From Corallococcus sp. AB018 (lineage in GTDB: Bacteria; Myxococcota; Myxococcia; Myxococcales; Myxococcaceae), in the NCBI RefSeq assembly GCF_003986945.1, contig NZ_RAWR01000021.1, positions 1 through 64,000 of the forward strand: a DNA stretch of 64,000 nt, in the 5' to 3' direction. The notes under the pieces are model-generated. The model had not been told where the DNA came from. It saw nothing but the letters and a program-made list of their open reading frames with translations, and searched no databases. The translations under genes were made by a program, and so were the position numbers. This document shows, one piece after another, positions 10,424-44,600 of this stretch. The number at the start of each line of letters is the position of its first letter. The first letter of the stretch is position 1.

Positions 10424-11302
10424 TCAGCCCTGCGCGGAGCGGGGCTTGCGCGTGGACTTCTTCGTCGTCGCGATCTCCAGCGACAGGTCCATGGCCCGCG
10501 CAGAGTGCGTCAGCGCGCCCATCGACACGAAGTCCACGCCCAGCTTCGCCAGCCGGGGCAGCCGGTCCAACGTGACGCCGCCCGACACTTCGATGGGCAC
10601 GCGGCTCGCCGTCAGCTTCACCGCTTCGCGGATCTGCGCGTCGTCCATGTTGTCCAACATGATGACGTCCGCGCCCGCGGCGATGGCCTCCTCCAGCTGC
10701 TTGAAGTTGGTGACCTCCACTTCAATCTTCACCAGCCGGGGACCGTTCAGCTTCGCGCGGCGCACCGCTTCGGTGATGTCGCCACCTACCGCCGCGATGT
10801 GGTTGTCCTTGATGAGGATGCCGTCGAAGAGGCCGAACCGGTGGTTGGACGCACCGCCCATGCGCACCGCGTGCTTCGCGAGGCCCCGCATTCCCGGCGG
10901 CGTCTTGCGCGTGTCCAGCACCCGCAGCTTCGAGCCTCGCACGGAGGTCATCGCCTGCTGGGCCAGCGTCGCGATGCCGGCGGCGCGCTGCACCAGGTTG
11001 AGCGCCGTGCGCTCCGCGGCCAGCAGCGAACGCAGCTTGCCGTGGACGCGCGCGGCGACCACCTTCGGTTTGATCTCCTCGCCGTCGCGCTTGAGGACCT
11101 CCACCTCCACCTCCGCGTCCACCATGTGGAAGACGCGGACGAAGGCGTCCAGGCCGGCGACGATCATCTGCTCCTTCGCGACCAGCTCACCGCTGCCCTC
11201 CGCTTCGGCGGGGACCACCGCCAGCGAGGTGACGTCCCCCGCAGCACCCAGGTCCTCGTCGAGGGACAGCGCGATGAGCCGATCGAGATAATCCTGCTGC
11301 AC
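10424..11302 (-). CDS. nadC: Nicotinate-nucleotide pyrophosphorylase (quinolinate phosphoribosyltransferase)
   Basis: Full-length similarity to QPRTase (RKTPPGMRGLAKHAVRMGGASNHRFGLFDGILIKDNH, VSGGVTLD). Confidence 0.9.
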   Translation of the reverse strand: MQQDYLDRLIALSLDEDLGAAGDVTSLAVVPAEAEGSGELVAKEQMIVAGLDAFVRVFHMVDAEVEVEVLKRDGEEIKPKVVAARVHGKLRSLLAAERTALNLVQRAAGIATLAQQAMTSVRGSKLRVLDTRKTPPGMRGLAKHAVRMGGASNHRFGLFDGILIKDNHIAAVGGDITEAVRRAKLNGPRLVKIEVEVTNFKQLEEAIAAGADVIMLDNMDDAQIREAVKLTASRVPIEVSGGVTLDRLPRLAKLGVDFVSMGALTHSARAMDLSLEIATTKKSTRKPRSAQG

Positions 11303-11311
11303 TTCCGCCTC

Positions 11312-14300
11312 CTACCGGCGCGCCTTGCGAGCCGGCTTGCCCCGAGTGGTCTTCTTCGCCGCGGCCTTCTTCGCGGCGGTCTTCTTCCCCGCCGCCTTCT
11401 TCGCCGAAGCCTTCTTCGCAGGAGCCTTCTTCACCGCCGCCTTCTTCGCGGCCGTCTTCTTGCCCGCTGCCTTCTTCGAGGAAGCCTTCTTCGCGGAAGC
11501 CTTCTTCGCAGGGGCCTTCTTCGCGGCGGACTTCTTGCTCGCCGCCTTCTTCGCGGAGGCCTTCTTCACCGCCGCCTTCTTCGCGGAGGCCTTCTTCGCA
11601 GGGGCCTTCTTCACCGCCGCCTTCTTCGCGGAGGCCTTCTTCGTCGGAGCCTTCTTCACTGGCTTCGCCGAACCCTCCGGCGCCTCGCGGGCGTCGCCGC
11701 CCTCCTTGGCCCGGTCGAACTCGCGCATCGCGTCGTCCACGAGGCCCATGCTCATGTACGCGACGCCCAGGTCGTGGTGGTCCGCCGGGGACAGCCCTTC
11801 CTTGGTGCCCTCGCGCAGCTTGTTGAGGGCCTCCTCCACCACCGGATCCGCGGCCTGGGGCGCCTGCGAAGCCTCTTCGGCTTCAATCTCGCCCTTCAGC
11901 TCCTGGCCCAGGTTCACCGCATCGTCCTTCGGTGCCTGCGGCTCGGTGGCCACCTTCACATGGGCGCTCTCGGGCGCGGGGGACTCGGACGCTTCAGGGG
12001 CTTCGGACTCGGTGCTGCCCGGCAACGGCGACGGCGTCTCGGACATGGGGGGCTCCGGGGCGATGCGCTGGAGGTGATCCTGCAGCTTGACCGTGCGCTC
12101 CTGGAGCTCCGCCACCCGGGCCTTGTCCTTCTCCACCACGTCCGGCGGAGCACGGGCCACGAAGTTCGGGTTGTCCAGCTTGCGCTGCAAACCGGTGAGT
12201 TCCTGCTCGGAGCGGACGATCTCCTTCTTCAGGCGGTCGCGCTCCGCGTCCAGGTCCACCAGGCCCGCCAGGGGCACATAGATTTCCAGGTTGCCGCTCA
12301 CGAACGCCGCCGCCTGCGGAGGCTTGGCGCCCGGGGGGCCCACCACCACCTCGGACAAGCCCGCGAGCGGCATCAGGTACGCGCGCCAACGCTCCAACAG
12401 CTCGCGCGTCGTCGCGTCCGGGCTCTGCACCACCGCCTTCACCTTGGCGGACGGCGGCAGGTTGCTCTCGCCGCGCAGCGTGCGCAGGCCCTCGATGGCC
12501 GCGATGACCGGCGCCATCTCGCCTTCCGCGGCCGCGTCCACCCACGCCGTCTCCGGCGCCGGGTACGCCGCGATGCAGATGCTCTCCGTGGGCCGGGACA
12601 TCGGCAGCTTCTGCCAGATCTCCTCGGTGATGAACGGCATGAACGGGTGCATCAGCCGCAGGATGCGGTCCAGGCACGTCACCAGCACCGCGCGCGTGGT
12701 GTCCTTGGCCTCCGCGTCGTCGCCGTACAGCGAGCCCTTCGCCAGCTCGATGTACCAGTCGCAGAACTCCGCCCACAGGAACTGGTACAGCGTGGATGCC
12801 GCCTCCGCGAAGCCGAACGCCTCCAGCGACGCGCGCGTCTCCTCCGTGGCCTTCTGCAGGCGGGAGAGGATCCACCGGTCCGCCAGCGTCAGCTTGCGGC
12901 CCTCGAGCGGCGTCTTGTCCAGGCTGAAGTCGCCCATGTTCATCAGGGCGAACCGGCTGGCGTTCCACAGCTTGTTGCAGAACGCCTTGTAGCCACCCAG
13001 GCGGTCCATCGACAGCTTGATGTCACGGCCCTGCTGCGTGAGCGACGCCAGCGTGAAGCGCAGCGCGTCCGCGCCGTGCGCCGGCATGCCCTGCGGGAAG
13101 CGGTTGCGCAAGGACGGCTGCAGCGACTCCGCCTTCGCGCCGAGGATGACGTCCAGGGGATCGATGACGTTCCCCTTCGTCTTGGACATCTTCTCGCCCT
13201 TCTCGTCGCGCACCATCGCGTGCAGGTACACGGTGCGGAAGGGCACATCGTTCATGAAGTGCAGGCCCATCATCATCATCCGGGCGACCCAGAAGAAGAT
13301 GATGTCGTGGCCCGTCTCCATCACGGACGTCGGGTAGAAGGTCTGGAGGTCCGCCGTCTGCTTCGGCCAGCCCAGCGTGGAGAACGGCCACAGCGCGGAC
13401 GAGAACCAGGTGTCCAGCACGTCCGGATCCTGCGTCAGCTCCTTGCCGCCGCACTTCGGGCAGGACTCCGGCGCCGTGCGAGACACGATGACGTCCGCCG
13501 TGTCCTTGGAGCGCTCCTCCGCCGGGGTGCACGCCGCGCAGTACCACGCGGGGATCTGGTGGCCCCACCACAGCTGGCGGCTCACGCACCAGTCGTGGAT
13601 GTTGTTCATCCAGTGGAAGTACGTGTTCGTCCACGACTCGGGGACGAACTTCGTGCGGCCCTCCTCCACGGCCTGGATGGCCGGCTTCGCCAGCGGTTCG
13701 ATCTTGATGAACCACTGCGGCGACAGGCGCGGCTCCACCACCGTGGTGCAGCGCTGGCAGGTGCCCACGTTCAGCTTGTGCGGCTCCTCCTTCTCCAGCA
13801 GGCCCAGCTCCGTCAGGTCCGCCAGCACCTGCTTGCGCGCCTCCCGGCTCTCCAGGCCCGCGTACTTGCCGGTGTCCTTCGTCATCCGCGCCGCTTCGTC
13901 CAGGATGGACAGCATCGGCAGCTTGTGGCGCAGGCCCGTCTGGTAGTCGTTGAAGTCGTGCGCGGGCGTGACCTTCACCACGCCGGTGCCGAACTCCATG
14001 TTCACCAGCTCGCCGTCCGCGATGACCGGAATCTCACGGTCGGTGAGCGGCAGCGCCACGCTCTTGCCGATGAGGTCCTGGTAGCGCGGATCCTCCGGGT
14101 GCACGGCGACGGCCGTGTCGCCCAGCAGCGTCTCCGGGCGCGTCGTCGCCACGGTGAGGAAGCGCTCCGTGCCCTTCACCGGATAGCGGATGTGCCAGAG
14201 CGAGCCGTTCTTCTCCTCGTGCTCCACTTCCAGGTCGGAGAGGGCCGTGCGGCAGGACGGGCACCAGTTGATCAGCTTCTGGGCCCGGTACATCAGGCCC

Positions 14301-14806
14301 TCTTCGTACAGCCGGACGAACACCTCGCGCACCGCGGCCGAGGACTGCTCGTCCATGGTGAAGCGCTCACGGCTCCAGTCCAGGGACGCGCCCAGGTAGC
14401 GGTGCTGCTCACCGATGCGCGCGCCGAACTTGCCCTTCCACGTCCAGACGCGCTCGAGGAACGCCTCGCGGCCCAGGTCGTGGCGGCTCTTGCCCTCCGT
14501 CTTCTTCAGCTCCTTCTCCACCACCATCTGCGTGGCGATGCCCGCGTGGTCCGTACCCGGCAGCCAGAGCGCGTTGAAGCCGCTCATCCGCTTCCAGCGC
14601 GTGAGGATGTCCTGGATGGTCGCGGTGAGCGCGTGGCCGATGTGCAGGCTGCCCGTCACGTTGGGCGGCGGCAGCACGATGCTGAACGGCGGCTTGGAGG
14701 AAGGGGCTTCGGCGCGGAAGTAGTCGCGCTCCAGCCAGTGGTTGTACCACCGCGCCTCCACTTCGGAGGGCTCGTAGGCCTTGGACAGTTCAGTCGTGTC
14801 AGTCAT
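11312..14806 (-). CDS. valS: Valine--tRNA ligase with unusual C-terminal extension of about 260 aa (acidic/Ser-rich segment plus Lys/Ala-rich histone H1-like tail)
   Basis: HIGH motif ([14 protein letters not shown]), KMSKT motif (KMSKTKGN), and anticodon-binding and coiled-coil domains typical of ValRS. Tail composed of AKKA/SAKKA repeats. Confidence 0.95.
11325..11660. repeat. Imperfect tandem nucleotide repeats (GCC-TTC-TTC-GCG type) encoding the Lys/Ala-rich ValRS tail
   Basis: Visible periodic gccgccttcttcgc(g/c)ga units over about 330 bp. Confidence 0.6.
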
Positions 14807-14859: not shown

Positions 14860-16122
14860 TCAATGCTGGGTCTCGCGGTCCTTGATGAGCCGCTCCAGCT
14901 CTTCCCGGATGATGGTCTCCGCCAGCTGCGGAACGACCTCCCAGGCAATCTTCTCGATGACCTCGCGGGACGCCTTCGACAGCGCCTCGCGCAGCAGCGC
15001 CTCTCCGCCATCCGCGGCCGGACGGGCGCGCGCGGGCGGAGTCGCCGGCGAGGGACCGCCGATGTCCAGGGAGATCTCCTCCGCGCCGCTGGGCTCGGGC
15101 AGCGAGTCCTCGATGCGGATGCTCTCCGTGCGGGCCTGCGCGGCGGGAGGGGCGGCCGGAGCACCCAGCCCGAACGGATCCCGGGCACGGGCGGCCGGAG
15201 GCACCGCGGCGGGCGGGGGCGCGGACGGCAGCGGCGCGGCGCCCGGAGGACGCGGGAAGCCGCCCGGGATGTTCGGGGCGCCAGGGCCCGGAGGACGCGC
15301 GGCCATGCCCGGAGGCGGCGCACCCGGCGGACGCGCGCCCGGAGGCACGGCACCCGGAGGAGGACGCGCACCCGGCGGCATGGCGCCCGGAGGCGGCGCA
15401 CCCGGAGGACGCGCGCCCATGCCCGGAGGCGGCGCACCCGGCGGAGGACGTGCACCCGGCGGCATGGCGCCCGGAGGCGGCGCACCCGGAGGACGCGCGC
15501 CCGGAGGAACAGCGCCCGGCAGCGGACGCGCCGCACCCGGAGGAGGAGGCACACCGGCGCCCGGAGGACGCGCGCCCGGAGGCGGCGCACCCGGCGGAGG
15601 ACGCGCACCCGGCGGCATGGCGCCCGGAGGCGGCGCACCCGCGGGACGCGCACCCGGCGGCACGGCGGCGGCGGGCGGCGCGCTGACCGGAGCGCTCGGG
15701 GCGGAGGTCTGGGGCAGAATGCGCGTCGCGGCGGACGCGGGCATCGTGTTGGACTTCTGGCCCACCAGCGCCTTCACCTTGTCGAGGAGGATCTGGCTCT
15801 CGAAGGGCTTGGTGATGTGGTCATCCGCCCGGGCGGCCTTCGCGCGGTTCTCGTCGAACGCCTCGAAGGTGCCGGCGAGCAGCAGCACCGGGATGGCCTG
15901 CGTGGAGGGGTCGCCCTTGAGCGCCTCGCAGACCTCGTAGCCGCTCTTGCCCGGCATCATCACGTCGGCGAGCACCACGTCCGGACGCAGCTCGCGCGTG
16001 CGGGAGATGGCGTCCAGCCCGTTGTCCACCGCGGTCACCTGGAAGTCTTCCGTCGCGAAGATCATCCCGATCACCTTGCGGATGGTGAGCGAGTCGTCGG
16101 CGATCAGTAGATTCTTGGGCAT
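14860..16122 (-). CDS. romR: Response regulator with receiver domain, long Pro-rich repeat linker and Glu-rich C-terminal helix (RomR-like polarity regulator)
   Basis: REC domain (LLIADDSLTIRKVIG...DVVLADVMMPGKSGYEV...TKPF). About 12 copies of PPGARPPGAPPPGAM. C-terminal EALLREALSKASREVIEKIAWEVVPQLAETIIREELERLIKDRE. This architecture matches M. xanthus RomR. The start was chosen at the Met immediately preceding the REC domain (MPKNLLIADDS). Confidence 0.65.
   Translation of the reverse strand: MPKNLLIADDSLTIRKVIGMIFATEDFQVTAVDNGLDAISRTRELRPDVVLADVMMPGKSGYEVCEALKGDPSTQAIPVLLLAGTFEAFDENRAKAARADDHITKPFESQILLDKVKALVGQKSNTMPASAATRILPQTSAPSAPVSAPPAAAVPPGARPAGAPPPGAMPPGARPPPGAPPPGARPPGAGVPPPPGAARPLPGAVPPGARPPGAPPPGAMPPGARPPPGAPPPGMGARPPGAPPPGAMPPGARPPPGAVPPGARPPGAPPPGMAARPPGPGAPNIPGGFPRPPGAAPLPSAPPPAAVPPAARARDPFGLGAPAAPPAAQARTESIRIEDSLPEPSGAEEISLDIGGPSPATPPARARPAADGGEALLREALSKASREVIEKIAWEVVPQLAETIIREELERLIKDRETQH
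15230..15700. repeat. Tandem about 45-48-bp nucleotide repeats encoding the Pro/Gly/Ala-rich linker
   Basis: Repeated cccggaggcggcgcacccggcggaggacgcgcacccggcggcatggcg units. Confidence 0.7.
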
Positions 16123-16239
16123 CGGCTCCGGCCTCGGGGGGCGCATACCCCCCTGAATTCGTTTGAGATTTCGGGCGAGCAAGCCTGCCTGCACGCCCTG
16201 TGTCAATCGGAGAAGCTTAGGATTCGCGCGTTGGGCCGA

Positions 16240-17148
16240 TCAAGAAAACATGCGCTGCAGGTCCAGTAACATCACCGGATCCGGCAGCCCCGGCGCCCGG
16301 AACGTTCCGGGAAGCTCGGCCGGCTTGAACTTCTGCAGCACACCCAGCACCCGGGTGGCCGCCAGCCCTACGTTCCGCCCCGCCAGTTCCGTGAGGACGA
16401 ACAGCTCCTCCGCCTGGGCCGGCGCACCCAGCAGCGCTGGAATCGAACAGATGGGCCATAGCGCCTGCGCGTGGGGATAGACGCCCGCCACCGGCCCGCT
16501 CTGCACCGGGAGCACGCTGAACGCCTCGCCCCGGGGTACCACCTGGGAGACGCAACCCAGCGGGACGCCGAACAGCACCCCCTGGGACTCCAGCACCAGC
16601 GCCCGCTCCGGGGGCGCGTCCGCATAGTGCACGGGCCGGGGCTCTGGCGGGGTCGCCCGGGGGCCCGCCCGGTGCGGCAGCGCTTCCACGATGAGCTCCA
16701 GGTACAGCCGGTCCTTGTGCAGCACCGCGCCCCGGCTCAGCGGCGCCAGCGAGTCCGCCAGGCCCGGAGGCAGCAGGAAGAACGGGTCCCTCGCGACGTC
16801 CGCGACCTCCACCACGGCGCGCACCCGCACCGCGAGCGTGGGGCTGACGTCCAGGACCACCACCATGCCCGGCACTTCCTCAGGCAGGCCGCCGAGCAGC
16901 GCGGCGAGGTCCTTCACTTCCAGTACGCCGCGCAGACTCGCGCCGCGAGCGCCCGGCATCGCGACCTCGATGACGGAGGTGGCCTCCACCGCGTAGCGCG
17001 TCTCTCCGGCCTCCACCAGCAGGCAGAGCCGCCGTCCGCTTTCAAAGGGCACGGCCCGGGACCCTAGCAGCCTTCCAGCGTTGGGTGCTAAGCCCTGAAC
17101 AGTCATGGCGCGACTGCTCCTCGTCGACGACGAAAAGATCGCCCGCAA
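16240..17148 (-). CDS. CheW-like coupling protein with two CheW-like domains
   Basis: Two segments with CheW-like signatures (RRLCLLVEAGETRYAVEATSVIEV and ALVLESQGVLFGVPLGCVSQVV). The alternative start at 17106 overlaps the start codon of the divergent gene. Confidence 0.65.
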   Translation of the reverse strand: MRAIFSSSTRSSRAMTVQGLAPNAGRLLGSRAVPFESGRRLCLLVEAGETRYAVEATSVIEVAMPGARGASLRGVLEVKDLAALLGGLPEEVPGMVVVLDVSPTLAVRVRAVVEVADVARDPFFLLPPGLADSLAPLSRGAVLHKDRLYLELIVEALPHRAGPRATPPEPRPVHYADAPPERALVLESQGVLFGVPLGCVSQVVPRGEAFSVLPVQSGPVAGVYPHAQALWPICSIPALLGAPAQAEELFVLTELAGRNVGLAATRVLGVLQKFKPAELPGTFRAPGLPDPVMLLDLQRMFS

Positions 17149-18493
17149 TCTCTACGGCGACTACCTCACGGCCGCGGGACACCTGGTCACGGCGGTGCCC
17201 ACCGTGGCGGACGCGAAGGCAGCCCTCTCCGCGGCGCGGTTCGACGCGGTGGTGACGGACCTCATCCTCCCCGGCGGCGACGGCATGGAGGTGCTTCGCC
17301 ACGTGCGCGAGCGCTACCCCGGCGTGGAGGTGCTGGTCATCACCGGCCTGGACAAGGTGGCCCCCGCGGTGCGCGCCATCAAGAGCGGCGCGGCGGAGTA
17401 CCTGGTCAAGCCCGTGGCGCCGGAGGCCCTGGAGCACGCGCTGCGCCGCGCGCTCACCACGCGCGACCTGATGCGTGAGAACGCGTCCCTGCGCCAGCAC
17501 GTCGCGCTGCTGGAGGCGGGCCAGCGCATCGCCACCACGCTCGACCGCGAGCGGCTGTCCACGGCCGCGTCCGACGCGCTGGAGTCCATGGCCAACGCCT
17601 CCGCGGTGATGCTCCTGGAGCGGGACCCCGGCGGCACGGGCTTCCGCTCGCACGGCATGCGCGGGCTGCCGGTGGACCTGCACGAGGCGCTCGTCCCGCT
17701 GCTCATCGAGCGGCTTTCGGGCACGCGCACGCAGGTGGAGCTCGACGGACTTCAAGTTCCCTGGCCGCGCACCCTCTCCTTCCCCGCCGTGGACGGCGAG
17801 CTGGTGCTGGGCCACGCGGTGCTCTTCCACGACAACGCGCCCGCGGAGCACCACGCGGAGACCGTGGGCTTCCTCGTGCGCAACTGGGCGCTGGCCCTGC
17901 GCAACCTGGGCCGCTTCGCCGCCGTGGAGGACCTGGCCTACGTCGATGACCTCACCCGCCTGTTCAACACGCGCTACCTGCACCTGGTGCTGGACCGCGA
18001 GGTGAACGAGGCCCTGCAGACGGAGCGCCCCTTCTCCCTGCTGTTCCTGGACCTGGACCGCTTCAAGGCCATCAACGACACGCACGGGCACCTGGTGGGC
18101 TCGCGGGTGCTGGTGGAGGCCGCGCGCGTGCTCAAGGGCTGCGTGCGCGACCCGGACGTGGTGGCGCGCTTCGGCGGCGACGAGTACGTGGTGCTCCTGC
18201 GCGGCACGGACTCCGGCGGGGCCCTCAAGGTCGCCGAGCGCATCCGCCGCACCATGGAGACCCATCAGTTCCTGGGCCGCGAGGGGCTGGCGCTCAAGCT
18301 CACCACCTGCATCGGCGTGGCCAGCTTCCCGGAGCACGCCCAGGACAAGGACCACCTGCTGGACCTGTCCGACCGGGCCATGTACCGGGGCAAGCGCGGC
18401 ACCCGGAACGTCGTCTACATGGCGGCGCAGGACCTGGAAGCCACCCCGGCCGAGCGCCGTCAGAATCCCCCGCCCCCGCAGGGCCAGGGCTGA
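17105..18493 (+). CDS. Response regulator receiver / GAF-like / GGDEF diguanylate cyclase (GGDEY variant with RxxD I-site)
   Basis: REC (RLLLVDDEKIARNLY...DAVVTDLILPGGDGMEV...KPV). GGDEF domain (LFLDLDRFKAINDTHGH...VRDPDVVARFGGDEYVVLL). Confidence 0.85.
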   Translation: MARLLLVDDEKIARNLYGDYLTAAGHLVTAVPTVADAKAALSAARFDAVVTDLILPGGDGMEVLRHVRERYPGVEVLVITGLDKVAPAVRAIKSGAAEYLVKPVAPEALEHALRRALTTRDLMRENASLRQHVALLEAGQRIATTLDRERLSTAASDALESMANASAVMLLERDPGGTGFRSHGMRGLPVDLHEALVPLLIERLSGTRTQVELDGLQVPWPRTLSFPAVDGELVLGHAVLFHDNAPAEHHAETVGFLVRNWALALRNLGRFAAVEDLAYVDDLTRLFNTRYLHLVLDREVNEALQTERPFSLLFLDLDRFKAINDTHGHLVGSRVLVEAARVLKGCVRDPDVVARFGGDEYVVLLRGTDSGGALKVAERIRRTMETHQFLGREGLALKLTTCIGVASFPEHAQDKDHLLDLSDRAMYRGKRGTRNVVYMAAQDLEATPAERRQNPPPPQGQG

Positions 18494-18507
18494 ACGCCGG
18501 ACGCGCG

Positions 18508-18897
18508 CTACTTGCGCAGGCTGCCCACGGTGAGGTGCTTGGGCAGCTCCACTTCCGCGGGCACGCCGCCGCCGCCCTCGCCCACCGCCTCCACCTCTTC
18601 GTGGGACGCGCCGGTGGTGATGAGGCGGTACTTCTGCGACGCCTCGCGGTCGTGCTGGGCCTGCTCCGGATCCAACCGCGCGATGAGCTGCCAGAAGAGG
18701 GCCGCGTGCTCGCGCTCCTCGTCCATGACGTGCCGCAGGATGGCCTTCGCCTCCTCATTGTCCGTCGCGTCCAGGTGCGCGGCGTAGAGGTTGATGGCGT
18801 CCAGCTCCGCCTCGATGTTGAGCCGGATGGAGCGGGCCAGTTCGGAGTCCGTCAGCTTCCGGGGCACCAGCGAGTGGAACGGGTTCGTCTGCGGCAT
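18508..18897 (-). CDS. encC: Ferritin-like (rubrerythrin-type) encapsulin cargo protein with C-terminal targeting peptide (EncC-like)
   Basis: Four-helix ferritin-like signature (EAELDAINLYAAHLD...AILRHVMDEEREHAALFWQL). C-terminus PAEVELPKHLTVGSLRK contains the GSL-type encapsulin targeting motif. GAGG ribosome-binding site before the ATG at 18897. Confidence 0.7.
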   Translation of the reverse strand: MPQTNPFHSLVPRKLTDSELARSIRLNIEAELDAINLYAAHLDATDNEEAKAILRHVMDEEREHAALFWQLIARLDPEQAQHDREASQKYRLITTGASHEEVEAVGEGGGGVPAEVELPKHLTVGSLRK

Positions 18898-19053
18898 GAG
18901 GACCTCAGCGACAGGGAGAGTCCCCAACAGGCGAGCGGGCAACGACGTTCCGTCAGGCCGGGCTGGAGGACGTGCGCGAGCATCCGTTCGGTCGCGAGCG
19001 CGGTCAACCGAATCCCGCTGGGGGTGCGTTGCGCGTGAACACCTGCCTCCGCC

Positions 19054-20583
19054 ATGCTCCCGCGCATGGAGACCCCCTCGCCGCTCGCGCAGCTGCTCCA
19101 GGCCCTGGACGCGGGGGACCTGGAGAAGGCACGGGTCGCGGCCGTGGCGCTGCAACGCGCCAACGCCCACACCCATCAGGTCGCCGCGGAGGTCCTCCAT
19201 GAGCTGCGTCAGCCCCTCCTGGGCGCGAAGGCCTACGCCCAGCTGCTCGCCGAGGAAGGAGGCTCCAGCGGTCCGCTGAAGCTGCTGCTCGCGCAGGTGG
19301 AGCGGATGGAGCAGATCGTCTCCGACTTCATCCGCCTGGCCAGCGAGCGGCCGGCCCCGCAGCAGCGGCTGTCCCTGGCCGCGCCCATCTGGGCGGCGGC
19401 GAAGGTGTTCAGCGTCAACCCGGACTCGGCGCGCATCTCACTGGAGGTGGAGGCCCCCGAGGACCTCACCATCCAGGGCAACGCGCGGCTGATTGAGCAG
19501 CTCACGCTCAACCTGCTCAACAACGCCCGCGACGCCATGTCCGGCCGGGGCCGCGTGAAGGTGACGCTCACGCGCGATGGCGCCTCCGCGGCCCTCTACG
19601 TTTCCGACTGGGGACCGGGCATCCCGGACGAGCTGAAGACGCGCATCTTCGAGCCCTACGTCTCCGCCAGCAAACGCGGCACGGGCCTGGGGCTCGCCGT
19701 CTGTCGTCGCATCGCGCAGGAGCACCACGCGCAGATTGCCCTGGTGCCGCCCACGACGCTGCGCGAAGTGCCGCCCCCGGCCACCGTGTTCCGCGTGCTC
19801 TTCCCGCCCACGGACGCGCCGCGCCCGCCGCGCAAGCGCCTGCTGGTGGTGGACGACGAGGGCATCATCCGGATGGTCTTCAAGGACCTGATGGACAAGG
19901 AGTGCGAAGTCATTGAAGCGGCCACGGGCGAAGCCGCGCTCGAAATCCTCCGCTCGTCGCGCGTGGATCTCATCGTCACGGACAAGAACCTGCCCGGAAT
20001 CTCCGGCCTGGAGCTGGCCCAGCACGCGAGGAAGCTGGACCCCGCGTCGCGCGTCATCCTGATGACGGGCTACCCCTCGCTGGTGACGACGCAGCAGGCG
20101 CTGCAGCTGGGCCTGGTGGACTACCTGCTCAAGCCCTTCGACGACATCCGCCAGGTGCGCGCGCTGCTGCGGCAGGCGCTGTACACGCCGGCCGCGCCGC
20201 CTGTCCCCGCCCCCAGCGCTGGCGTGCGCCGGGTGGACGTGCTGGAGGACAACCCGGCCACCGCGCGGCTGATTTCAGAGGCGCTGACGCTGTTGGGCCT
20301 GGAGGCGCGCGTCGTCGCGGGCGCGGAGGTGGCCACCATGGAGCCGCCCATGGGCGTGGTGGTGTCTTGGGACTTCGCGCCGGCCTACGGCAAGAAGGCG
20401 CTGGAGCTGGCCCGGGCCCTGAGCCAGGGCGCGCCCTTCGTCGTCCTGGCCGAGCACCTCACCATGGACACGGCGCTGGCGTCGCTGCGCGCCGGGGCCG
20501 CCGCGTGCCTGCCCAAGCTGCTCTCCGACACCACGGCGCTCAGCCGCGAGCTGGGCCTGGCCTTCAAGAAGACCGCTTCCTGA
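19054..20583 (+). CDS. Hybrid sensor histidine kinase (HisKA + HATPase_c + C-terminal receiver)
   Basis: H-box LHELRQPLLG. N/G boxes (LNLLNNARDAM, SDWGPGIPDE, GTGLGLAV). Receiver RLLVVDDEGIIRMV...DLIVTDKNLPGISG...KPF. Confidence 0.85.
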   Translation: MLPRMETPSPLAQLLQALDAGDLEKARVAAVALQRANAHTHQVAAEVLHELRQPLLGAKAYAQLLAEEGGSSGPLKLLLAQVERMEQIVSDFIRLASERPAPQQRLSLAAPIWAAAKVFSVNPDSARISLEVEAPEDLTIQGNARLIEQLTLNLLNNARDAMSGRGRVKVTLTRDGASAALYVSDWGPGIPDELKTRIFEPYVSASKRGTGLGLAVCRRIAQEHHAQIALVPPTTLREVPPPATVFRVLFPPTDAPRPPRKRLLVVDDEGIIRMVFKDLMDKECEVIEAATGEAALEILRSSRVDLIVTDKNLPGISGLELAQHARKLDPASRVILMTGYPSLVTTQQALQLGLVDYLLKPFDDIRQVRALLRQALYTPAAPPVPAPSAGVRRVDVLEDNPATARLISEALTLLGLEARVVAGAEVATMEPPMGVVVSWDFAPAYGKKALELARALSQGAPFVVLAEHLTMDTALASLRAGAAACLPKLLSDTTALSRELGLAFKKTAS

Positions 20584-20668: not shown

Positions 20669-22360
<1,692 letters not shown>

Positions 22361-22491: not shown

Positions 22492-22848
22492 CTACTCCGC
22501 GAAGCGCACGAGGTTGAGCAGCTGCCCCATGTCCAGGGGCTTCTGCAGGGTGATGGCGACGCCCTTGCGCAGGCCCCGGTCGGAGATGTTGGCGTCCGTG
22601 CTGGCGGTCATCATCAGGACGGAGATGCGCTGGAAGCGGGGGTCCGCCTTCAGCATCTCCGTGAAGTGGATGCCGTCCAGGTGGGGCATCAGGTAGTCGG
22701 TGATGACCAGCCCCACGGGGTGACGCTCCATGATGTCCAGGGCCTGGAGCGCGTCCGACGCCGAGAACACGGTGTAGCCATGCATCTCCAGGTAGCGAGA
22801 GAGCATGGTGCACAGCTCGTAATCGTCGTCGACGACCAGGATGTTCAC
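22492..22848 (-). CDS. Single-domain response regulator (CheY-like)
   Basis: ILVVDDDYELC...LVITDYLMPHLDG...LQKPL. Confidence 0.85.
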   Translation of the reverse strand: MNILVVDDDYELCTMLSRYLEMHGYTVFSASDALQALDIMERHPVGLVITDYLMPHLDGIHFTEMLKADPRFQRISVLMMTASTDANISDRGLRKGVAITLQKPLDMGQLLNLVRFAE

Positions 22849-22936: not shown

Positions 22937-24010
22937 ATGGCGAAGCGCATGGCGAAGCAAGGGGAGGCGCGGGACATGGACGCGCGGCTGGAGGGAGTCG
23001 CGGACGCCTTCGAGGCGCGGGACTTCGAGGCCGCGCTCACCAGCGCCGACGCCCTGCTCCGGGACGTTCCGGACTCACCAGAAGCCCTGCACTACCGGGC
23101 CGCCGCGCTGGTGGAGGTGGGACGCCTGGAGGACGCGGGCAAGGCCTATGGCGCCGCCCTCAAGATGGCCCCGGAAGACCTGGAGATCCTCTTCGGCGCG
23201 GCGGAATTCCTCGTGTGCCGCACCGGCGAGGACCGCGAGGCGGTGGAGGAAGGGCTGGAGTGGTGCGGCCGCGGGCGGAAGCTGGCGCAGCGGGCCGATG
23301 ACGTGGAGCTCGTCTACGAGTTCCTCCTCCTGGAGGGCATGGGCCTCAACCAGCTGGGGGAATGTGAGTCCGCGCTGAAAATCCTGGACCAGGCGCTGAC
23401 GCACATGCCGCGCTCGACGGACGCGCAGCTGGAGCGGGGCATCGCGCTGTTCGAGTTGTGCCGCTTCGCGCCCGCGCAGGAGGCCTTCGAGCGGGTGTTG
23501 AAGGACGCGCCGGACGAGGCCTGGGCGCACCACTACCTGGGGCTGGTCGCGGAGCGGCGCCAGGATGCGAAGGAGGCGAAGAAGCGCTTCTCCCGGGCGC
23601 AGGCGCTGGCCCCGGAGGAGCTGCCGCCGCCGGTGGCGCTGGAGGAGGCGGCGTTCGACCGCGCGGTGGAGGACGCGATGCGCGCCCTGCCCTCGCAGGT
23701 GAAGCAGTACATGGACAACGTGACGCTGGCGGTGGAGGACCTGCCGTCGGATGAGGACCTGCTGGGTCAGCAGCCGCCACTGTCACCGTGCATCCTGGGG
23801 GTGTTCCGGGGCACGCCCGTGGGCGAGCGCAGCGTGATGGACGCGGCGGATCACTTCCCGCCCTCCATCGTGCTGTACCAGAAGAACCTGGAGCGCTTCG
23901 CGCGGACCCGCGAGGAACTCATCGAACAGATTGGCATCACGGTGATGCACGAAGTCGGTCACTTGATGGGTCTGGATGAAGACGACCTGTGGGAGCGGGG
24001 GCTGGACTAG
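22937..24010 (+). CDS. TPR-repeat protein with C-terminal zincin-like putative metallopeptidase domain (HExxH)
   Basis: Multiple TPR-like helical repeats. C-terminal VMHEVGHLMGLDEDDL resembles the Zincin_1 / DUF1025 minimal metallopeptidase fold. Confidence 0.65.
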   Translation: MAKRMAKQGEARDMDARLEGVADAFEARDFEAALTSADALLRDVPDSPEALHYRAAALVEVGRLEDAGKAYGAALKMAPEDLEILFGAAEFLVCRTGEDREAVEEGLEWCGRGRKLAQRADDVELVYEFLLLEGMGLNQLGECESALKILDQALTHMPRSTDAQLERGIALFELCRFAPAQEAFERVLKDAPDEAWAHHYLGLVAERRQDAKEAKKRFSRAQALAPEELPPPVALEEAAFDRAVEDAMRALPSQVKQYMDNVTLAVEDLPSDEDLLGQQPPLSPCILGVFRGTPVGERSVMDAADHFPPSIVLYQKNLERFARTREELIEQIGITVMHEVGHLMGLDEDDLWERGLD

Positions 24011-36819: not shown

Positions 36820-39800
36820 ATGGACGTGATGAGAGCCAGCAGGGTCCTGCTGCTGGGATTGGGCTTTGTCGCAGCAGGCTGTAGCAGCAAGCCACCGGAA
36901 GAGAAGACGCTGGCCCACAGCGCTTCGCCGTTGGTGGTGGAGGGGTGGACCGAGGCCGCGCCCATGGCGGAGGCTCGCAAGTACCACGCGGGCGTGGTGC
37001 TGCCTTCCGGCAAGGTGCTGGTGACGGGCGGCTACAACGCCAGCGGGTATCTGTCCTCCTCCACCCTCTTCGACCCCGCTACTGGCGCGTGGACAGCGGC
37101 CGCCTCCATGCCGGAGGCGCGGCAGATCCACGCCATGACGCCGCTGCCTTCGGGCAAGGTGCTCGTGGTTGGCGGAGAGAACGCGACGGGCCGCCTGGCT
37201 TCCGCGGTGGTGTATTCCCCGGACACCAATACCTGGGCCTCCGCTGGGAGCTTTGCCTCGGGCGTGGCACGGGCTTCCCTGACGGCGACGCTGTTGCCTT
37301 CGGGCAAGGTGCTGGTGGCGGGCGGTGGCAACTCCGGCGGCCCCAAGTTCACTGTGGATGTGTATGAGCCGGTGGCGGGAACCTGGAGTGTCGGTCCGAA
37401 TCTGGGAGCGGCGCGGCGCGACCATACGGCGACGCTGCTGACGACCGGGCAGGTGCTGGTGGCAGGCGGCGTCGGGGGCGCGAGCCTGGCGACGGCGGAG
37501 TTGTACAACCCGTCAAGCAATACGTGGGCTGCGACGGGAAGTCTGGCGACGGCGCGCTACAACCACACGGCGACGCTGCTGCCTTCGGGCAAGGTGCTGG
37601 TGGTGGGTGGCCGCAACAGCACCGGGCTGCTGGCGACAGCGGAGGAATACGACCCGGGCACCGGGCAGTGGAGCGCGACGGGCGCGCTGGGCTCGGCGAG
37701 GGAGCTGCACTCGGCCACCCTGCTGAGCACCGGCAAGGTGCTGGTAACGGGCGGCATGTATGGCAGCGCAGCAACAGCCGCACTGGCGAGCTCGGAGGTG
37801 TACGACCCCGTCACCCGGCAGTGGAGCGCGGCGACGCCGATGACCGGTGCGCGGTATTCGTATGTGGCGGTGTCGCTGGCGACGCAGGCCAAGGTGTTGG
37901 TGGTGGGCGGTATTGGCGCCACCGGCGCGAGCCTGAAGACGGCGGAGGTGTACGGGTACGACGCCTGTGCTGGGGTGACGTGCAACAGCGCCCCGGGGGC
38001 CTGCTACGAGGCGGCGGGGACGTGCAGCAATGGCGTGTGCAGCTACGCGCTGAAGGCAGCTGGGGCCACCTGCGACGACGGGGATGCGTGCACCGGGACG
38101 GACGTATGCAACGGCGCGGGCGTGTGCGCGGGAAGCGCCACCCAGTGCGACAGTCCTCCGGGGCAGTGCTATGCGGCGGCGGGGGCATGCAGCGACGGGA
38201 CGTGCTCCTATTCGTACAAGGAAGCCGGTGACGCGTGTGATGACGGGGATGCGTGCACGGTGGATGAGACGTGCAACGGAGCGGGCGGGTGCGCGGGCAC
38301 GCCGGTGACTTGCAGCAGCCCTCCGAGCCAGTGCTTCGAGGCGGCGGGAACGTGCAGTGAGGGCGCGTGCTCCTATGCGCCGAAGGCGGCGGGCACTGCC
38401 TGTGATGACGGCAATGGCGGCACCATCAACGATGTGTGCAGCGGAGCGGGCGTCTGCGCGGGCGTGCCGGCCTGCACGACGCCGCCGGATGCCTGCCACG
38501 CCTCACCGGGCACCTACTCCAACGGAGCGTGCACCTACCCGCCGAAGGCCGCGGGCACCCTCTGCGATGATGGCAACGCCTGCACGACGGGCGATGTCTG
38601 CAACGGTGCGGGCACGTGCGGTGGTGCGGCCCTGAGCTGCAACAGCCCTCCCAGCCAGTGCCACCAGGCCGCCGGCACCTGCTCCAACGGTGCCTGCAGC
38701 TATGCACCGAAGTCCTCGGGTGCGAGCTGCGATGACGGCAACGCGTGCACGACGGGAGACGTCTGCAACGGTGCCGGCACCTGCGGCGGCTCGGCCCTGA
38801 GCTGTAACAGCCCGCCCAGCCAGTGCTACGAGGCCGCGGGCACCTGCTCCAACGGCACCTGCAGCTACGTGCCGAAAGCCTCGGGGGCCAGCTGCAATGA
38901 CGGCAACGCGTGCACGACCGGTGACGTGTGCAACGGCTCCGGCACTTGCGGTGGCTCGGCGCTGAGCTGCAACAGCCCTCCCAGCCAGTGCTACGAGGCG
39001 GCGGGAACCTGCTCCAACGGCACCTGCAGCTACGTGCCGAAGGCTTCGGGTGCCAGCTGCAATGACGGCAACGCGTGCACGACCGGTGATGTGTGCAATG
39101 GCTCCGGCACCTGCGGTGGCTCGGCGCTGAGCTGCAACAGCCCGCCCAATCAGTGCTACCAGTCCGCCGGCACTTGCTCCAACGGCACCTGTTCCTACGT
39201 GCCGAAGGCTTCGGGTGCCAGCTGCGATGACAGCAACGCGTGCACCACGGGAGACGTCTGCAACGGTGCTGGCGGCTGCGGCGGCACGGCGCTGAGTTGC
39301 AGCACCGCGAGCACCAATTACTGCAGCGGAAATGACGTCCGGAAGACCACCGGCACCGGCACCTGCAGCGGCGGCTCCTGCCAGTCCACCGACGTCCTCG
39401 TGCAGTCGTGCCAGACCGGCACCAGCGGCCCCTTCTGCAGCGGCAATGGTGCCTACGAGACCGTCTATGGCGGCTGCTCCAACGGTGCCTGCACGTCCAC
39501 CCAGCAGCTCATCGAGTCGTGCTCCACCTCCAGCAGCAACTACTGCAGCGGCAACACCGTCCGGAAGCTGACCGGCACCGGTTGCAGCGGCGGCAACTGC
39601 GGCTCCACCGACACCCTCGTCCAGACGTGCTCCACCTCGAGCAGCAACTACTGCAATGGCAATGACGTGCGGAAGACCACCGGCACCGGTTGCAGCGACG
39701 GCTCCTGTGGCTCCACCGACACGCTCGTCCAGACGTGCCCGACGGGCACCAGCAGCCCCTTCTGCAGCGGCAGCAGCGTCTATCGGACCCTCAATGCCGG

Positions 39801-41046
39801 CTGCAGCGGAGGCGCCTGCGCGTCCAGCCAGCAACTCGTCGAGACGTGCTCCACCTCCAGCAGCAACTACTGCAGTGGCAACACCGTCCGGAAGACCACT
39901 GGCACCGGCACTTGCAGCGGCGGCTCCTGCGGCTCCACCGACACCCTGGTCCAGACGTGCTCCACCGCGAGCACCAACTACTGCAGCGGCAATGACTTGC
40001 GGCGCACCAGTGGCACGGGCACCTGCAGCGGCGGTTCCTGCGGCTCCACGGACACCCTCGTGCAGACGTGCCAGACCGGCACCAGTGGCCCCTTCTGCAG
40101 TGGCAACGGTGCCTACCGGACCGTCTATGGCGGCTGCTCCAGCGGTGCCTGCACGTCCTCCCAGCAGCTCATCGAGTCGTGCTCCACCTCCAGCAGCAAC
40201 TACTGCAGCGGCAACACCGTCCGGAAGGTCACCGGCACCGGCTGCAGCGGTGGCTCCTGCGGCTCGACTGATACCGCCGTCCAGACGTGCTCCACCGCGA
40301 GCAGCAACTACTGCAGCGGCAACACCGTTCGCAGGACCACCGGCACCGGATGCAGCGACGGCTCCTGTGGCTCCACCGATACGCTCGTCCAGACGTGCAC
40401 GACCGGCACCAGCAGCCCCTTCTGCAGCGGCAACAGCGTCTACCAGACCGTCAATGGCGGCTGCAGCGGAGGTTCCTGCTCATCCAGCCAGCAGTTCGTC
40501 CAGACGTGCTCCACCGCGAGCACCAACTACTGCAGCGGCAATGATGTGCGGAAGACCACCGGCACCGGTTGCAGCGGCGGCTCCTGTGGCTCCTCCGATT
40601 CCTTCGTCCAGACGTGCTCCACCGCGAGCACGACCTACTGCAGCGGCAACAACGTTCGCAGGACGACCGGCACCGGTTGCAGCAGTGGCAACTGCGGCTC
40701 CACCGATACCCTGGTCCAGACGTGCTCCACCGCGAGCACGACCTACTGCAGCGGCAACACCGTCCGCAGGACGACCGGCACCGGTTGCAGCGGCAGCGGC
40801 ACCTGCGGCTCCACCGACACCCTGGTCCAGACGTGCAACAGCCAATTTGAGATGTGCAGCGATGGCGCCTGCGTCTCCAACGATGGGCTCTGGCAGTTGG
40901 TGGGTTCGTGCAGCACGAGGTGCCCATCCAATGAATGCTGGCCCCCCGTCAACCCGGAAGGTCAGGACTGCAGGCCGGTGGGTTCTACCTGCTTCGCTTA
41001 CGGCGGTCCCACCGGTCGTAACGAATGGAAGTGCGCGCCGTACTGA
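36820..41046 (+). CDS. Giant lipoprotein with Kelch beta-propeller, myxo-type Cys-rich repeats and a 36-aa four-Cys tandem repeat (paralogue 1)
   Basis: Lipobox FVAAGCSS. Seven Kelch motifs (GKVLVTGG/ARxxH). About 10 CNSPPSQCYEAAGTCSNGTCSY...CDDGNACTTGDVCNGAGTCGG repeats (Myxococcus cysteine-rich repeat type). About 20 copies of a four-Cys unit in two alternating subtypes, the most regular being CSTSSSNYCSGNTVRKTTGTGCSGGSCGSTDTLVQT. Confidence 0.8.
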   Translation: MDVMRASRVLLLGLGFVAAGCSSKPPEEKTLAHSASPLVVEGWTEAAPMAEARKYHAGVVLPSGKVLVTGGYNASGYLSSSTLFDPATGAWTAAASMPEARQIHAMTPLPSGKVLVVGGENATGRLASAVVYSPDTNTWASAGSFASGVARASLTATLLPSGKVLVAGGGNSGGPKFTVDVYEPVAGTWSVGPNLGAARRDHTATLLTTGQVLVAGGVGGASLATAELYNPSSNTWAATGSLATARYNHTATLLPSGKVLVVGGRNSTGLLATAEEYDPGTGQWSATGALGSARELHSATLLSTGKVLVTGGMYGSAATAALASSEVYDPVTRQWSAATPMTGARYSYVAVSLATQAKVLVVGGIGATGASLKTAEVYGYDACAGVTCNSAPGACYEAAGTCSNGVCSYALKAAGATCDDGDACTGTDVCNGAGVCAGSATQCDSPPGQCYAAAGACSDGTCSYSYKEAGDACDDGDACTVDETCNGAGGCAGTPVTCSSPPSQCFEAAGTCSEGACSYAPKAAGTACDDGNGGTINDVCSGAGVCAGVPACTTPPDACHASPGTYSNGACTYPPKAAGTLCDDGNACTTGDVCNGAGTCGGAALSCNSPPSQCHQAAGTCSNGACSYAPKSSGASCDDGNACTTGDVCNGAGTCGGSALSCNSPPSQCYEAAGTCSNGTCSYVPKASGASCNDGNACTTGDVCNGSGTCGGSALSCNSPPSQCYEAAGTCSNGTCSYVPKASGASCNDGNACTTGDVCNGSGTCGGSALSCNSPPNQCYQSAGTCSNGTCSYVPKASGASCDDSNACTTGDVCNGAGGCGGTALSCSTASTNYCSGNDVRKTTGTGTCSGGSCQSTDVLVQSCQTGTSGPFCSGNGAYETVYGGCSNGACTSTQQLIESCSTSSSNYCSGNTVRKLTGTGCSGGNCGSTDTLVQTCSTSSSNYCNGNDVRKTTGTGCSDGSCGSTDTLVQTCPTGTSSPFCSGSSVYRTLNAGCSGGACASSQQLVETCSTSSSNYCSGNTVRKTTGTGTCSGGSCGSTDTLVQTCSTASTNYCSGNDLRRTSGTGTCSGGSCGSTDTLVQTCQTGTSGPFCSGNGAYRTVYGGCSSGACTSSQQLIESCSTSSSNYCSGNTVRKVTGTGCSGGSCGSTDTAVQTCSTASSNYCSGNTVRRTTGTGCSDGSCGSTDTLVQTCTTGTSSPFCSGNSVYQTVNGGCSGGSCSSSQQFVQTCSTASTNYCSGNDVRKTTGTGCSGGSCGSSDSFVQTCSTASTTYCSGNNVRRTTGTGCSSGNCGSTDTLVQTCSTASTTYCSGNTVRRTTGTGCSGSGTCGSTDTLVQTCNSQFEMCSDGACVSNDGLWQLVGSCSTRCPSNECWPPVNPEGQDCRPVGSTCFAYGGPTGRNEWKCAPY

Positions 41047-41677: not shown

Positions 41678-44600
41678 ATGAATGTGTTGAGAGCCAGCAG
41701 GGCTCTGCTGTTGGGATTTGTCTGCGTACTCGTAAGCTGTAGCAGCAAACCACCGGAAGAGAAGACACCGGCCCAGAGCGCTTCCCCATTGGTGGTGGAA
41801 GGGTGGACCGAGACCGCGCCGATGGCGGAGGCCCGCAAGTACCACGCGAGCGTGGTGCTGCCTTCCGGCAAGGTGCTGGTGACGGGCGGCTACAACGCCA
41901 GCGGGTATCTGTCCTCCTCCACCCTCTTCGACCCCGCTACTGGCGCGTGGACAGCGGCCGCCTCCATGCCGGAGGCGCGGCAGATCCACGCCATGACGCC
42001 GCTGCCTTCGGGCAAGGTGCTCGTGGTTGGCGGAGAGAACGCGACGGGCCGTCTGGCTTCCACGGCGGTGTATTCCCCGGACACCAATACCTGGGCCTCC
42101 GCGGGGAGCTTCGCGACGGGCGTGGCACGGGCTTCCCTGACGGCGACGCTGTTGCCTTCGGGCAAGGTGCTGGTGGCGGGCGGGGGCAACTCCGGCGGCC
42201 CCAAGCTCAGTGTGGATGTGTATGAGCCAGTGGCGGGAACCTGGAGCGTGGGTCCGAATCTGGGAGCGGCGCGGCGCGACCATACGGCGACGCTGCTGAC
42301 GACCGGGCAGGTGCTGGTGGCGGGCGGCGTCGGGGGCGCGAGCCTGGCGACGGCGGAAGTGTATGACCCGACGAGCAATACCTGGACGGCGACGGGAAGC
42401 CTGGCGGCGGCGCGCTACAACCACACGGCGACGCTGCTGCCTTCGGGCAAGGTGCTGGTGGTGGGTGGCCGTAACAGCAGCGGGCTGCTGGCGACAGCGG
42501 AGGAATACGACCCGGGCACCGGGCAGTGGAGCGCGACGGGCGCGCTGGGCACGGCCAGGGAGCTGCACTCGGCAACCCTGCTGAGCACCGGCAAGGTGCT
42601 GGTGACTGGAGGCATGTATGGCAGCGCAGCGACGGCCGCACTGGCGAGCTCGGAGGTGTACGACCCGGCCACCCGGCAGTGGAGCGCGGCGGGCCCCATG
42701 GCCGGTGCGAGGTATTCGCATGTGGCGGTGTCGCTGGCGACGCAGGCCAAGGTGTTGGTGGCGGGCGGTATTGGCGCCACCGGCGCGAGCCTGAAGACGG
42801 CGGAGGTGTACGGGTACGACGCATGTGCTGGGGTGACGTGCAACAGCGCACCGAGTCAGTGCTACGAGGCGGCGGGGACGTGCAGCAATGGCGTGTGCAG
42901 CTACGCGCTGAAGGCGGCTGGGACCACCTGCGATGACGGGGATGCGTGCACCGAGACGGACGTATGCAACGGCGCGGGCGTGTGCGCGGGAAGAGCCACC
43001 CAGTGCGGCAGTCCTCCGGGGCAGTGCTACGCGGCGGCGGGCACATGCAGCGACGGGACGTGCTCCTATTCGTACAAGGCGGCCGGTGACGCGTGTGATG
43101 ACGGGGATGCGTGCACGGTGGATGAGACGTGCAACGGGGCGGGCGGGTGCGCGGGCACACCGGTGGCTTGCAGCAGCCCTCCGAGCCAGTGCTTCGAGGC
43201 GGCGGGAACGTGCAGCAGTGGGGCGTGCTCCTATGCGCCGAAGGCGGCGGGCACGGCCTGTGATGACGGCAATGGCGGCACCATCAACGACGTGTGCAGC
43301 GGAGCGGGCGTCTGCGCGGGCGTCCCGGCCTGCACAACGCCGCCGGACGCCTGCCATGGCTCCCCGGGCACGTACTCCAACGGAGCGTGCACCTACCCGC
43401 CGAAGGCCGCGGGCACCCTCTGCGATGATGGCAACGCTTGCACGACGGGCGACGTCTGCAACGGTGCTGGCACCTGTGGCGGCTCGGCGCTGAGCTGCAA
43501 CAGCCCGCCCAATCAGTGCTACCAGTCCGCCGGCACTTGCTCCAACGGCACCTGTTCCTACGTGCCGAAGGCCTCGGGCGCCAGCTGCGATGACAGCAAC
43601 ACATGCACCACGGGAGACGTCTGCAACGGTGCTGGCGGCTGCGGCGGCACGGCGCTGAGTTGCAGCACCGCGAGCACCAATTACTGCAGCGGAAATGACG
43701 TCCGGAAGACCACCGGCACCGGCACCTGCAGCGGTGGATCCTGCCAGTCCACTGACGTCCTCGTGCAGTCGTGCCAGACCGGCACCAGCGGCCCCTTCTG
43801 CAGCGGAAATGGTGCCTACGAGACCGTCTACGGCGGCTGCTCCAACGGCGCCTGCACGTCCACCCAGCAGCTCATCGAGTCGTGCTCCACCTCCAGCAGC
43901 AACTACTGCAGCGGCAACACCGTCCGGAAGCTGACCGGCACCGGTTGCAGCGGCGGCAACTGCGGCTCCACCGACACCCTCGTCCAGACGTGCTCCACCT
44001 CGAGCAGCAACTACTGCAACGGCAATGACGTGCGGAAGACCACCGGCACCGGCTGCAGCGACGGCTCCTGTGGCTCCACCGACACGCTCGTCCAGACGTG
44101 CCCGACGGGCACCAGCAGCCCCTTCTGCAGCGGCAGCAGCGTCTACCGGACCCTCAATGCCGGCTGCAGCGGAGGCTCCTGCTCGTCCAGCCAGCAACTC
44201 GTCGAAACGTGCTCCACCTCCAGCAGCAACTACTGCAGTGGCAACACCGTCCGGAAGACCACCGGCACCGGCACTTGCAGCGGCGGCTCCTGTGGCTCCA
44301 CGGACACCCTCGTCCAGACGTGCTCCACCGCGAGCACCAACTACTGCAGCGGCAATGACTTGCGGCGCACCAGTGGCACGGGCACCTGTAGCGGCGGCTC
44401 CTGCGGCTCCACGGACACCCTCGTGCAGACGTGCCAGACCGGCACCAGCGGTCCCTACTGCAGCGGCAACGGTGCCTACCAGACCGTCTACGGCGGCTGC
44501 TCCAACGGCGCCTGCACGTCCACCCCGCAACTCATCGAGTCGTGCTCCACCTCGAGCAGCAACTACTGCAGCGGCAACACCGTCCGGAAGGTCACCGGCA

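Follow-up and report, generated by a model that had tools for sequence, protein, structure and literature searches.

The gene at 18508-18897 is, with high confidence, the Corallococcus (C. exiguus-type) orthologue of Myxococcus xanthus encC, i.e. a gene for a ferritin-like encapsulin cargo that lies far from the gene of its shell. The best match of the product in the PDB is M. xanthus EncC itself (7S8T, E=1.8e-64, whole length), and the two proteins are 82% identical end to end. Curated models agree. NCBIfam NF058679 (EncB_fam), entitled 'EncB family encapsulin nanocompartment ferritin-like cargo protein', recognises residues 1-127 with 111.9 bits for a cut-off of 90, and the Pfam family EncFtn-like (PF22277) scores 36.6 bits for a cut-off of 27. 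Aligned with EncB as well, as the first-pass annotation of this DNA had proposed, the product shows 35% identity to the C. exiguus protein over just 65 residues, against full-length identity to EncC, and it does not pass the NCBIfam EncB exception model (28.3 versus a cut-off of 210). We regard it as an orthologue of EncC rather than EncB because of the full-length identity and of the common gene neighbourhood described below. Hence, the suggestion that this is an EncC-like encapsulin cargo gene is supported by sequence, family models, synteny and the terminal peptide.

In M. xanthus, EncA (MXAN_3556) forms a T=3 encapsulin of family 1, the family of the Linocin_M18/HK97 fold, and EncC (MXAN_4464, UniProt Q1D3Y8) is its principal ferritin-like cargo and the most abundant native one. 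The locus thus belongs to a system that is already known: it encodes the orthologue of a protein characterised in its structure and biochemistry, in the M. xanthus-type arrangement, and curated models for it exist. What the present analysis adds is of modest value, namely the misleading public names of these proteins, a measured 544-kb separation from encA, and a conserved neighbourhood and putative promoter.

The encC gene and its neighbourhood

The features in and just upstream of the gene are the following, in coordinates of the window, by which we mean the whole 64-kb stretch of DNA that was analysed.

18508-18897, minus strand: encC, secondary ferritin-like encapsulin cargo; 129 codons and stop (7S8T match, NF058679, 82% identity)
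18511-18540, minus strand: targeting (cargo-loading) peptide KHLTVGSLRK, with its LTVGSLR core at 18514-18534 (motif search, conservation)
18541-18588, minus strand: flexible Gly/Ala/Pro/Glu-rich linker, residues 104-119 (low pLDDT, low conservation)
18589-18849, minus strand: EncFtn half-ferritin domain, residues 17-103 (AlphaFold model; helices 17-44, 48-75 and 77-94; E31, Y38, E61, H64)
18903-18906, minus strand: Shine-Dalgarno-like GAGG, 5 nt before the encC ATG (read from the sequence)
18979-19007, minus strand: candidate sigma-70-type promoter of encC, with TTGACC at 19002-19007, a 17-nt spacer and GATGCT at 18979-18984 (cross-genus conservation)

Translation shows that the open reading frame is real and that its product is the one described before, a protein of 129 aa (MPQTNPFHSL...ELPKHLTVGSLRK*; in full, MPQTNPFHSLVPRKLTDSELARSIRLNIEAELDAINLYAAHLDATDNEEAKAILRHVMDEEREHAALFWQLIARLDPEQAQHDREASQKYRLITTGASHEEVEAVGEGGGGVPAEVELPKHLTVGSLRK). 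The frame is still open upstream as far as 19200. The ATG at 18897 is nevertheless the correct start, because the N-terminus MPQTNPFH (M1-P-Q-T-x-P-F-H) is kept in all but one of the 121 aligned sequences and because GAGG stands 5 nt upstream. A GGAG or GAGG occupies the equivalent place in all four genera compared (Corallococcus, Myxococcus hansupus, Stigmatella and Archangium).

The spacer between encC and the neighbouring kinase gene (18898-19053) contains three blocks that are invariant across these four genera, GCAACGC, GGATTCCGTTGACC and CGGATGCT, and is otherwise 66% identical in the alignment. The last two blocks fit a -35/-10 pair with 17-nt spacing, in which the hexamers TTGACC and GATGCT and the distance between them do not vary; GCAACGC lies upstream of this pair. 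This is likely a sigma-70-type promoter of encC. The proposal comes from cross-genus conservation and not from the consensus, since a generic scan of 18350-19150 for sigma-70 promoters and terminators called neither. The conserved upstream block GGATTCSGTTGACC was also sought at the encB-encA loci, where its presence would have suggested common regulation, and no matches were found there. With the promoter-like blocks, one might approach the question of what keeps a remote cargo gene in step with its shell.

The genes on both sides of encC, within the part of the window that concerns us here, are listed below.

10424-11302, minus strand: QRPTase
11312-14806, minus strand: ValS
14860-16206, minus strand: receiver-domain protein
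16240-17148, minus strand: CheW-like protein
17105-18493, plus strand: response-regulator-GGDEF protein (RR-GGDEF)
19054-20583, plus strand: HisKA-HATPase-receiver hybrid histidine kinase
20669-22312, minus strand: GroEL
22492-22848, minus strand: response regulator
22937-24010, plus strand: TPR/Zincin protein

The gene is thus flanked by a GGDEF regulator and a hybrid kinase, as had been noticed at first sight. It diverges from the kinase gene, with a spacer of 156 bp, and converges with the RR-GGDEF gene, with a spacer of 14 bp; since its neighbours are divergent or convergent, encC is a monocistronic unit and does not form an operon with the signalling genes. The order response regulator, GroEL, hybrid kinase, encC, RR-GGDEF and CheW-like, with encC in the same orientation relative to its two flanks, is kept in Corallococcus, Myxococcus hansupus, Stigmatella aurantiaca and Archangium, M. 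hansupus standing here for Myxococcus, and not M. xanthus DK1622. From this common order it follows that the position of encC is ancestral and that synteny, and not sequence alone, marks the gene as an orthologue. The arrangement in which the shell gene forms an operon with encB while encC lies elsewhere is therefore ancestral, and syntenic across Myxococcaceae and Archangiaceae, Corallococcus included.

Does this stable position reflect a functional link between encC and the flanking kinase and RR-GGDEF genes? The module might control encC, or EncC or the iron status might feed into the module. Such a link would account for a gene order kept in four genera and for invariant intergenic blocks other than the putative promoter, e.g. 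GCAACGC. Yet, divergent and convergent genes are not co-transcribed, neither neighbour carries a DNA-binding output domain, and the block also holds housekeeping genes (GroEL, ValS, QRPTase), so that its order may simply reflect a stable region of the core genome. We thus consider the link unlikely. One might further speculate, from the conserved position of encC (next to the kinase, RR-GGDEF, CheW-like and GroEL2 genes) and from the invariant blocks upstream of it, that a dedicated two-component or c-di-GMP circuit sets the amount of EncC, the main iron-oxidising cargo, without regard to the encB-encA operon. We give this, too, a low probability. If it were true, the composition of the cargo could be tuned separately from the number of shells; the encB-encA operon has a sigma-54 activator gene of its own directly downstream.

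The targeting peptide and the distant shell gene

The C-terminus of the product had been read as a cargo-loading peptide, and it holds the LTVGSLR core that is common to M. xanthus EncB, EncC and EncD and that is known from cryo-EM to dock into the EncA shell. The relaxed motif [LMF][TS][VI]G[SNGTA][LFM][RKT] has a single match in the six-frame translation of the window, and it lies one residue before the encC stop codon. Across 121 sequences the terminus follows the conserved pattern [LM]-T-V-G-[SNG]-[LFM]-R-R, with T123, V124, G125 and R128 invariant or nearly so in the orthologues. Conservation in the family is lowest in the columns of residues 107-119, whereas the columns on either side are conserved. 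This succession of conserved domain, variable linker and conserved peptide is classic for cargo. In the structural model, pLDDT drops below 50 from residue 109 onward and the tail is disordered. EncC thus ends in a GSL-type hydrophobic core with basic residues, presented at the end of a disordered linker.

The protein resembles M. xanthus EncC in its length (129 versus 130 aa), its ferroxidase residues, its linker followed by LTVGSLR and the location of its gene far from encA; the close relative of M. xanthus examined for synteny, M. hansupus, has the same flanking genes. It differs in the sequence of the linker (EGGGGVPAEVELP here versus KEGAAPSPADVTPE in M. xanthus) and in two residues of the peptide, KHLTVGSLRK here versus KRLTVGSLRR. 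H121 replaces an arginine at a position where 59 of the 121 sequences have R and 30 have Q, and the terminal K129 replaces an arginine and is shared by 7 of the 121. Both changes appear minor, being conservative or at a variable position, which does not imply an unaltered affinity.

In M. xanthus, the two leucines and the valine of the peptide occupy three hydrophobic pockets of EncA, and its arginine or arginines pair with acidic residues of the shell. These contacts are given as D39/D214/Y217 or, in another numbering, R28/R34/D38/D213/D243; the two papers number residues one apart. Could H121 and K129 weaken the peptide to the point that EncC is poorly encapsulated, or not at all, and works outside the shell as a decameric ferroxidase? 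Each of the two residues is found in a minority of the family, and the terminal arginines of the M. xanthus peptide contact EncA D214/Y217 electrostatically. Against this, the peptide retains the hydrophobic core L-T-V-G-S-L and R128, lysine preserves the charge, position 121 varies naturally (R/Q/T), and EncD still binds EncA although its final arginine is absent. Furthermore, the species has exactly this 129-aa protein, fixed, in at least 10 contigs. Poor or absent encapsulation through these two residues therefore seems very unlikely.

A search of the 64-kb window by tblastn with M. xanthus EncA, a query identical to PDB 4PT2, found no encapsulin shell gene (best E=0.7), in agreement with the first-pass annotation. 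That annotation took the lack of a shell gene from the entire genome as one observation that would tell against a cargo. This objection fails, since C. exiguus-type assemblies that encode exactly this EncC do hold a shell gene elsewhere, in an encB-encA operon. In GCA_006376655.1, the exact EncC is encoded on VEWR01000015 and the encB-encA operon on VEWR01000267. In GCA_009909105.1, both genes are on the same 1.23-Mb contig (JAAAPK010000002.1), encC at ~370,822-371,211 and encA at ~914,956-915,828, i.e. ~544 kb apart. The remote-cargo arrangement of M. xanthus, which had been proposed for this locus, is thus found within a single contig. The window itself is 98.5-99.4% identical to several Corallococcus assemblies over ~20 kb, with RAWF01000059 as the closest match (99.4%).

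The shell is well conserved. C. exiguus EncA (P0244, looked up by its exact sequence) is ~96% identical to M. xanthus EncA, with 11 differences in the first 280 positions, and the contact residues R29, R35, D39, N106, D214, Y217 and D244 are identical in the two species. In a homologue search, all EncA of Myxococcus and Corallococcus fell in one 90% cluster. A scan of one genome per species with EncA returned 73 loci, 14 of them labelled Corallococcus and all of these with an encA at ~95-96% identity, among records that carry accession prefixes other than those of the assemblies holding the exact EncC; Myxococcus, Pyxidicoccus, Archangium, Hyalangium, Vitiosangium and Citreicoccus were also represented. 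Everywhere in the loci displayed, encA is preceded by a 162-aa EncFtn-like encB ending in ...PLTIGSLRRGGGSGGSSGGR.

EncB (MXAN_3557; C. exiguus orthologue at 4449-4937 of locus L080) shares with EncC the EncFtn half-ferritin fold, the ExxH site and the shell, and its targeting core in C. exiguus, PLTIGSLRR, is of the same type. Yet, EncB has 162 aa, its Pro/Ala linker is far longer, and a Gly/Ser tail follows the peptide; its gene shares an operon with encA, whereas encC lies at a distance.

Two further observations were made at the shell loci. In every C. exiguus-type locus (L080-L089, at ~5898-7322), a 474-aa regulator with receiver, sigma-54-activator and HTH_8 domains is encoded directly after encB-encA on the same strand, and this protein might regulate the shell operon. 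Separately, a 203-kb contig assigned to 'Comamonas sp. KCTC 72670' (L012, BNCN01000016.1) encodes an EncA with 98% identity to M. xanthus EncA; the probable cause is a wrong label or contamination of the assembly by a Myxococcus genome.

Fold, ferroxidase centre and public names

An AlphaFold model of EncC, built on 27 orthologues, has pLDDT values of 88-98 over residues 11-100 and consists of helices 17-44, 48-75 and 77-94, with a short one at 99-103. The two long antiparallel helices followed by a shorter C-terminal helix are those of a half-ferritin monomer. In Foldseek, the model matches best with the EncC chains of 7S8T, followed by 5N5E, 5DA5 and 7S5C, i.e. by EncFtn of Pyrococcus furiosus and Rhodospirillum rubrum and by M. 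xanthus EncB; the top matches are all EncFtn proteins. Eren et al. (2022) is reportedly the primary structural study of EncC.

The chain carries a single ExxH motif (E61-R-E-H64), together with E31 and Y38. These four residues are invariant in 121 sequences and in register with E32, Y39, E62 and H65 of R. rubrum EncFtn. The product had initially been described as having a rubrerythrin/ferritin-like four-helix core with paired EExH-type ligands. The ferritin-like character stands. The four-helix core does not, since the monomer model has two long helices and a third, and neither do the paired ligands, since there is one ExxH per chain; the four-helix and paired wording is true of the dimer only. 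EncFtn proteins complete the four-helix bundle and the symmetric di-iron site only as antiparallel dimers, at the interface of the two chains, and five dimers make a decamer. EncC of Corallococcus is thus a half-ferritin and would, by analogy, form a four-helix bundle on dimerisation.

R. rubrum EncFtn (Rru_A0973, PDB 5DA5) is alike in fold, in belonging to a decamer-forming family, in its aligned ligands and in its C-terminal GSL-type peptide. It differs in having only ~31% identity to the product, a gene adjoining that of a T=1 shell, and the peptide SLGIGSLK. With classical ferritin, bacterioferritin and rubrerythrin, EncC shares the di-iron chemistry and, once an EncFtn dimer has formed, the bundle geometry at the metal site. 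Unlike them, its chain has half a bundle and one ExxH and makes no 24-mer cage of its own; EncFtn proteins need the encapsulin shell for mineral storage.

These elements can be put together in a likely scheme. The gene would be transcribed alone, probably from its own conserved promoter, and the 129-aa product is predicted to fold as a two-helix half-ferritin. Two monomers would pair antiparallel on Fe(II) into a four-helix bundle with a symmetric di-iron centre, to which each chain contributes E31, Y38, E61 and H64, and five such dimers would make a decameric ring. The disordered linker would present KHLTVGSLRK to the inner face of EncA, presumably supplied by the encB-encA operon ~544 kb away, during assembly of the T=3 shell. 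L122, V124 and L127 would then enter the hydrophobic pockets of EncA, and R128 and K129 would pair with its acidic residues. Once encapsulated, EncC would oxidise Fe(II) to Fe(III), the mineral being retained in the shell, and this sequestration of iron may limit Fenton chemistry under oxidative stress or starvation. Decamer assembly, ferroxidase activity and encapsulation are known for M. xanthus EncC. For the Corallococcus protein, these three properties and the physiological role are proposed by analogy with the work on M. xanthus and R. rubrum. The sequence prerequisites of each step, namely orthology, ligands, peptide, shell gene with its contacts and remote arrangement, have been verified.

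The domain databases also propose other families for the product. The Pfam family Rubrerythrin matches with 26 bits, over profile positions 5-69 of 137 only. Rubrerythrin or classical ferritin was rejected as an identity given the single ExxH, the half-profile match and the lack of a four-helix bundle in the monomer model. That the product is a free cytosolic di-iron enzyme with no encapsulin link, such as a COQ7-type demethoxyubiquinone hydroxylase, has next to no chance of being right: Pfam COQ7 does score 25.5 bits, slightly over its cut-off of 23.5, and database records do bear the title 'demethoxyubiquinone hydroxylase family protein', but the match covers only positions 2-59 of a profile of 169, the NCBIfam COQ7 equivalog is far from being passed (14.2 versus 180), the full-length four-helix di-iron domain is absent, the product being half the size of such a hydroxylase, and the conserved terminal targeting peptide and the match to the EncC crystal structure would be left without explanation, as would the published co-purification of M. 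xanthus EncC with the shell. The COQ7 reading is effectively refuted already, and the product is best described as an EncC-type cargo.

The public names of the orthologues tell a different story. The NCBI pipeline calls most of them 'demethoxyubiquinone hydroxylase family protein', apparently on account of the half-domain COQ7 match, JGI calls them 'rubrerythrin', and 'ferritin' is also in public use. Database entries for the exact 129-aa protein read 'ferritin [Corallococcus sp. AB004]' and 'MULTISPECIES ... [Corallococcus]', and a near-identical member of the EncC cluster is named C. exiguus. Such names are misleading and hide the role as an encapsulin cargo. Moreover, mining for encapsulin cargo that is limited to the neighbours of shell genes will miss the orthologues of EncC.

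The vault gene and other features of the window

The window encodes a second protein of interest in the context of protein cages.

7441-9720, minus strand: major-vault-protein homologue, 759 aa (Vault, Vault_2/3/4, and MVP_shoulder at 151.9 bits)

The presence of a vault protein gene near encC, noticed in the first reading of the sequence, is thereby confirmed, and the view that their proximity is coincidental is supported. The vault gene occupies this slot in most sister assemblies. In the sister strain JABEKY01 (L004), the block from encC to QRPTase is intact, but the slot (18880-20390 of L004) holds epimerase and aldo-keto-reductase genes instead. Since this strain keeps the neighbourhood of encC without the vault gene, the two are not linked. 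Directly downstream of the vault gene and on the same strand lie the genes of a 329-aa HmuY-like protein (6366-7355, minus strand) and of a 551-aa protein without a Pfam match (4786-6441, minus strand), which may be co-transcribed with it. Bacterial homologues of the major vault protein, including those of myxobacteria, have been described (bioRxiv 10.1101/872010).

Several genes of the window have repetitive stretches. ValS carries a C-terminal tail of ~115 residues (~11315-11670) that matches histone-H1-like HC2 and extensin-type low-complexity repeats; its DNA has internal repeats, and the length of the protein ranges from 1159 to 1165 aa between strains. The receiver-domain protein gene at 14860-16206 is internally repetitive between 15287 and 15692, where BLAST gives multiple offset self-matches, at 77-95% identity between strains. 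Finally, two tandem paralogous giant Kelch-repeat proteins, of 1408 and 1242 aa, are encoded at 36820-41046 and 41678-45406, both on the plus strand. The G+C content is ~0.64-0.68 from 28 to 46 kb, versus 0.70-0.74 elsewhere in the window, and this lower-G+C stretch with the Kelch genes may be an acquired island.
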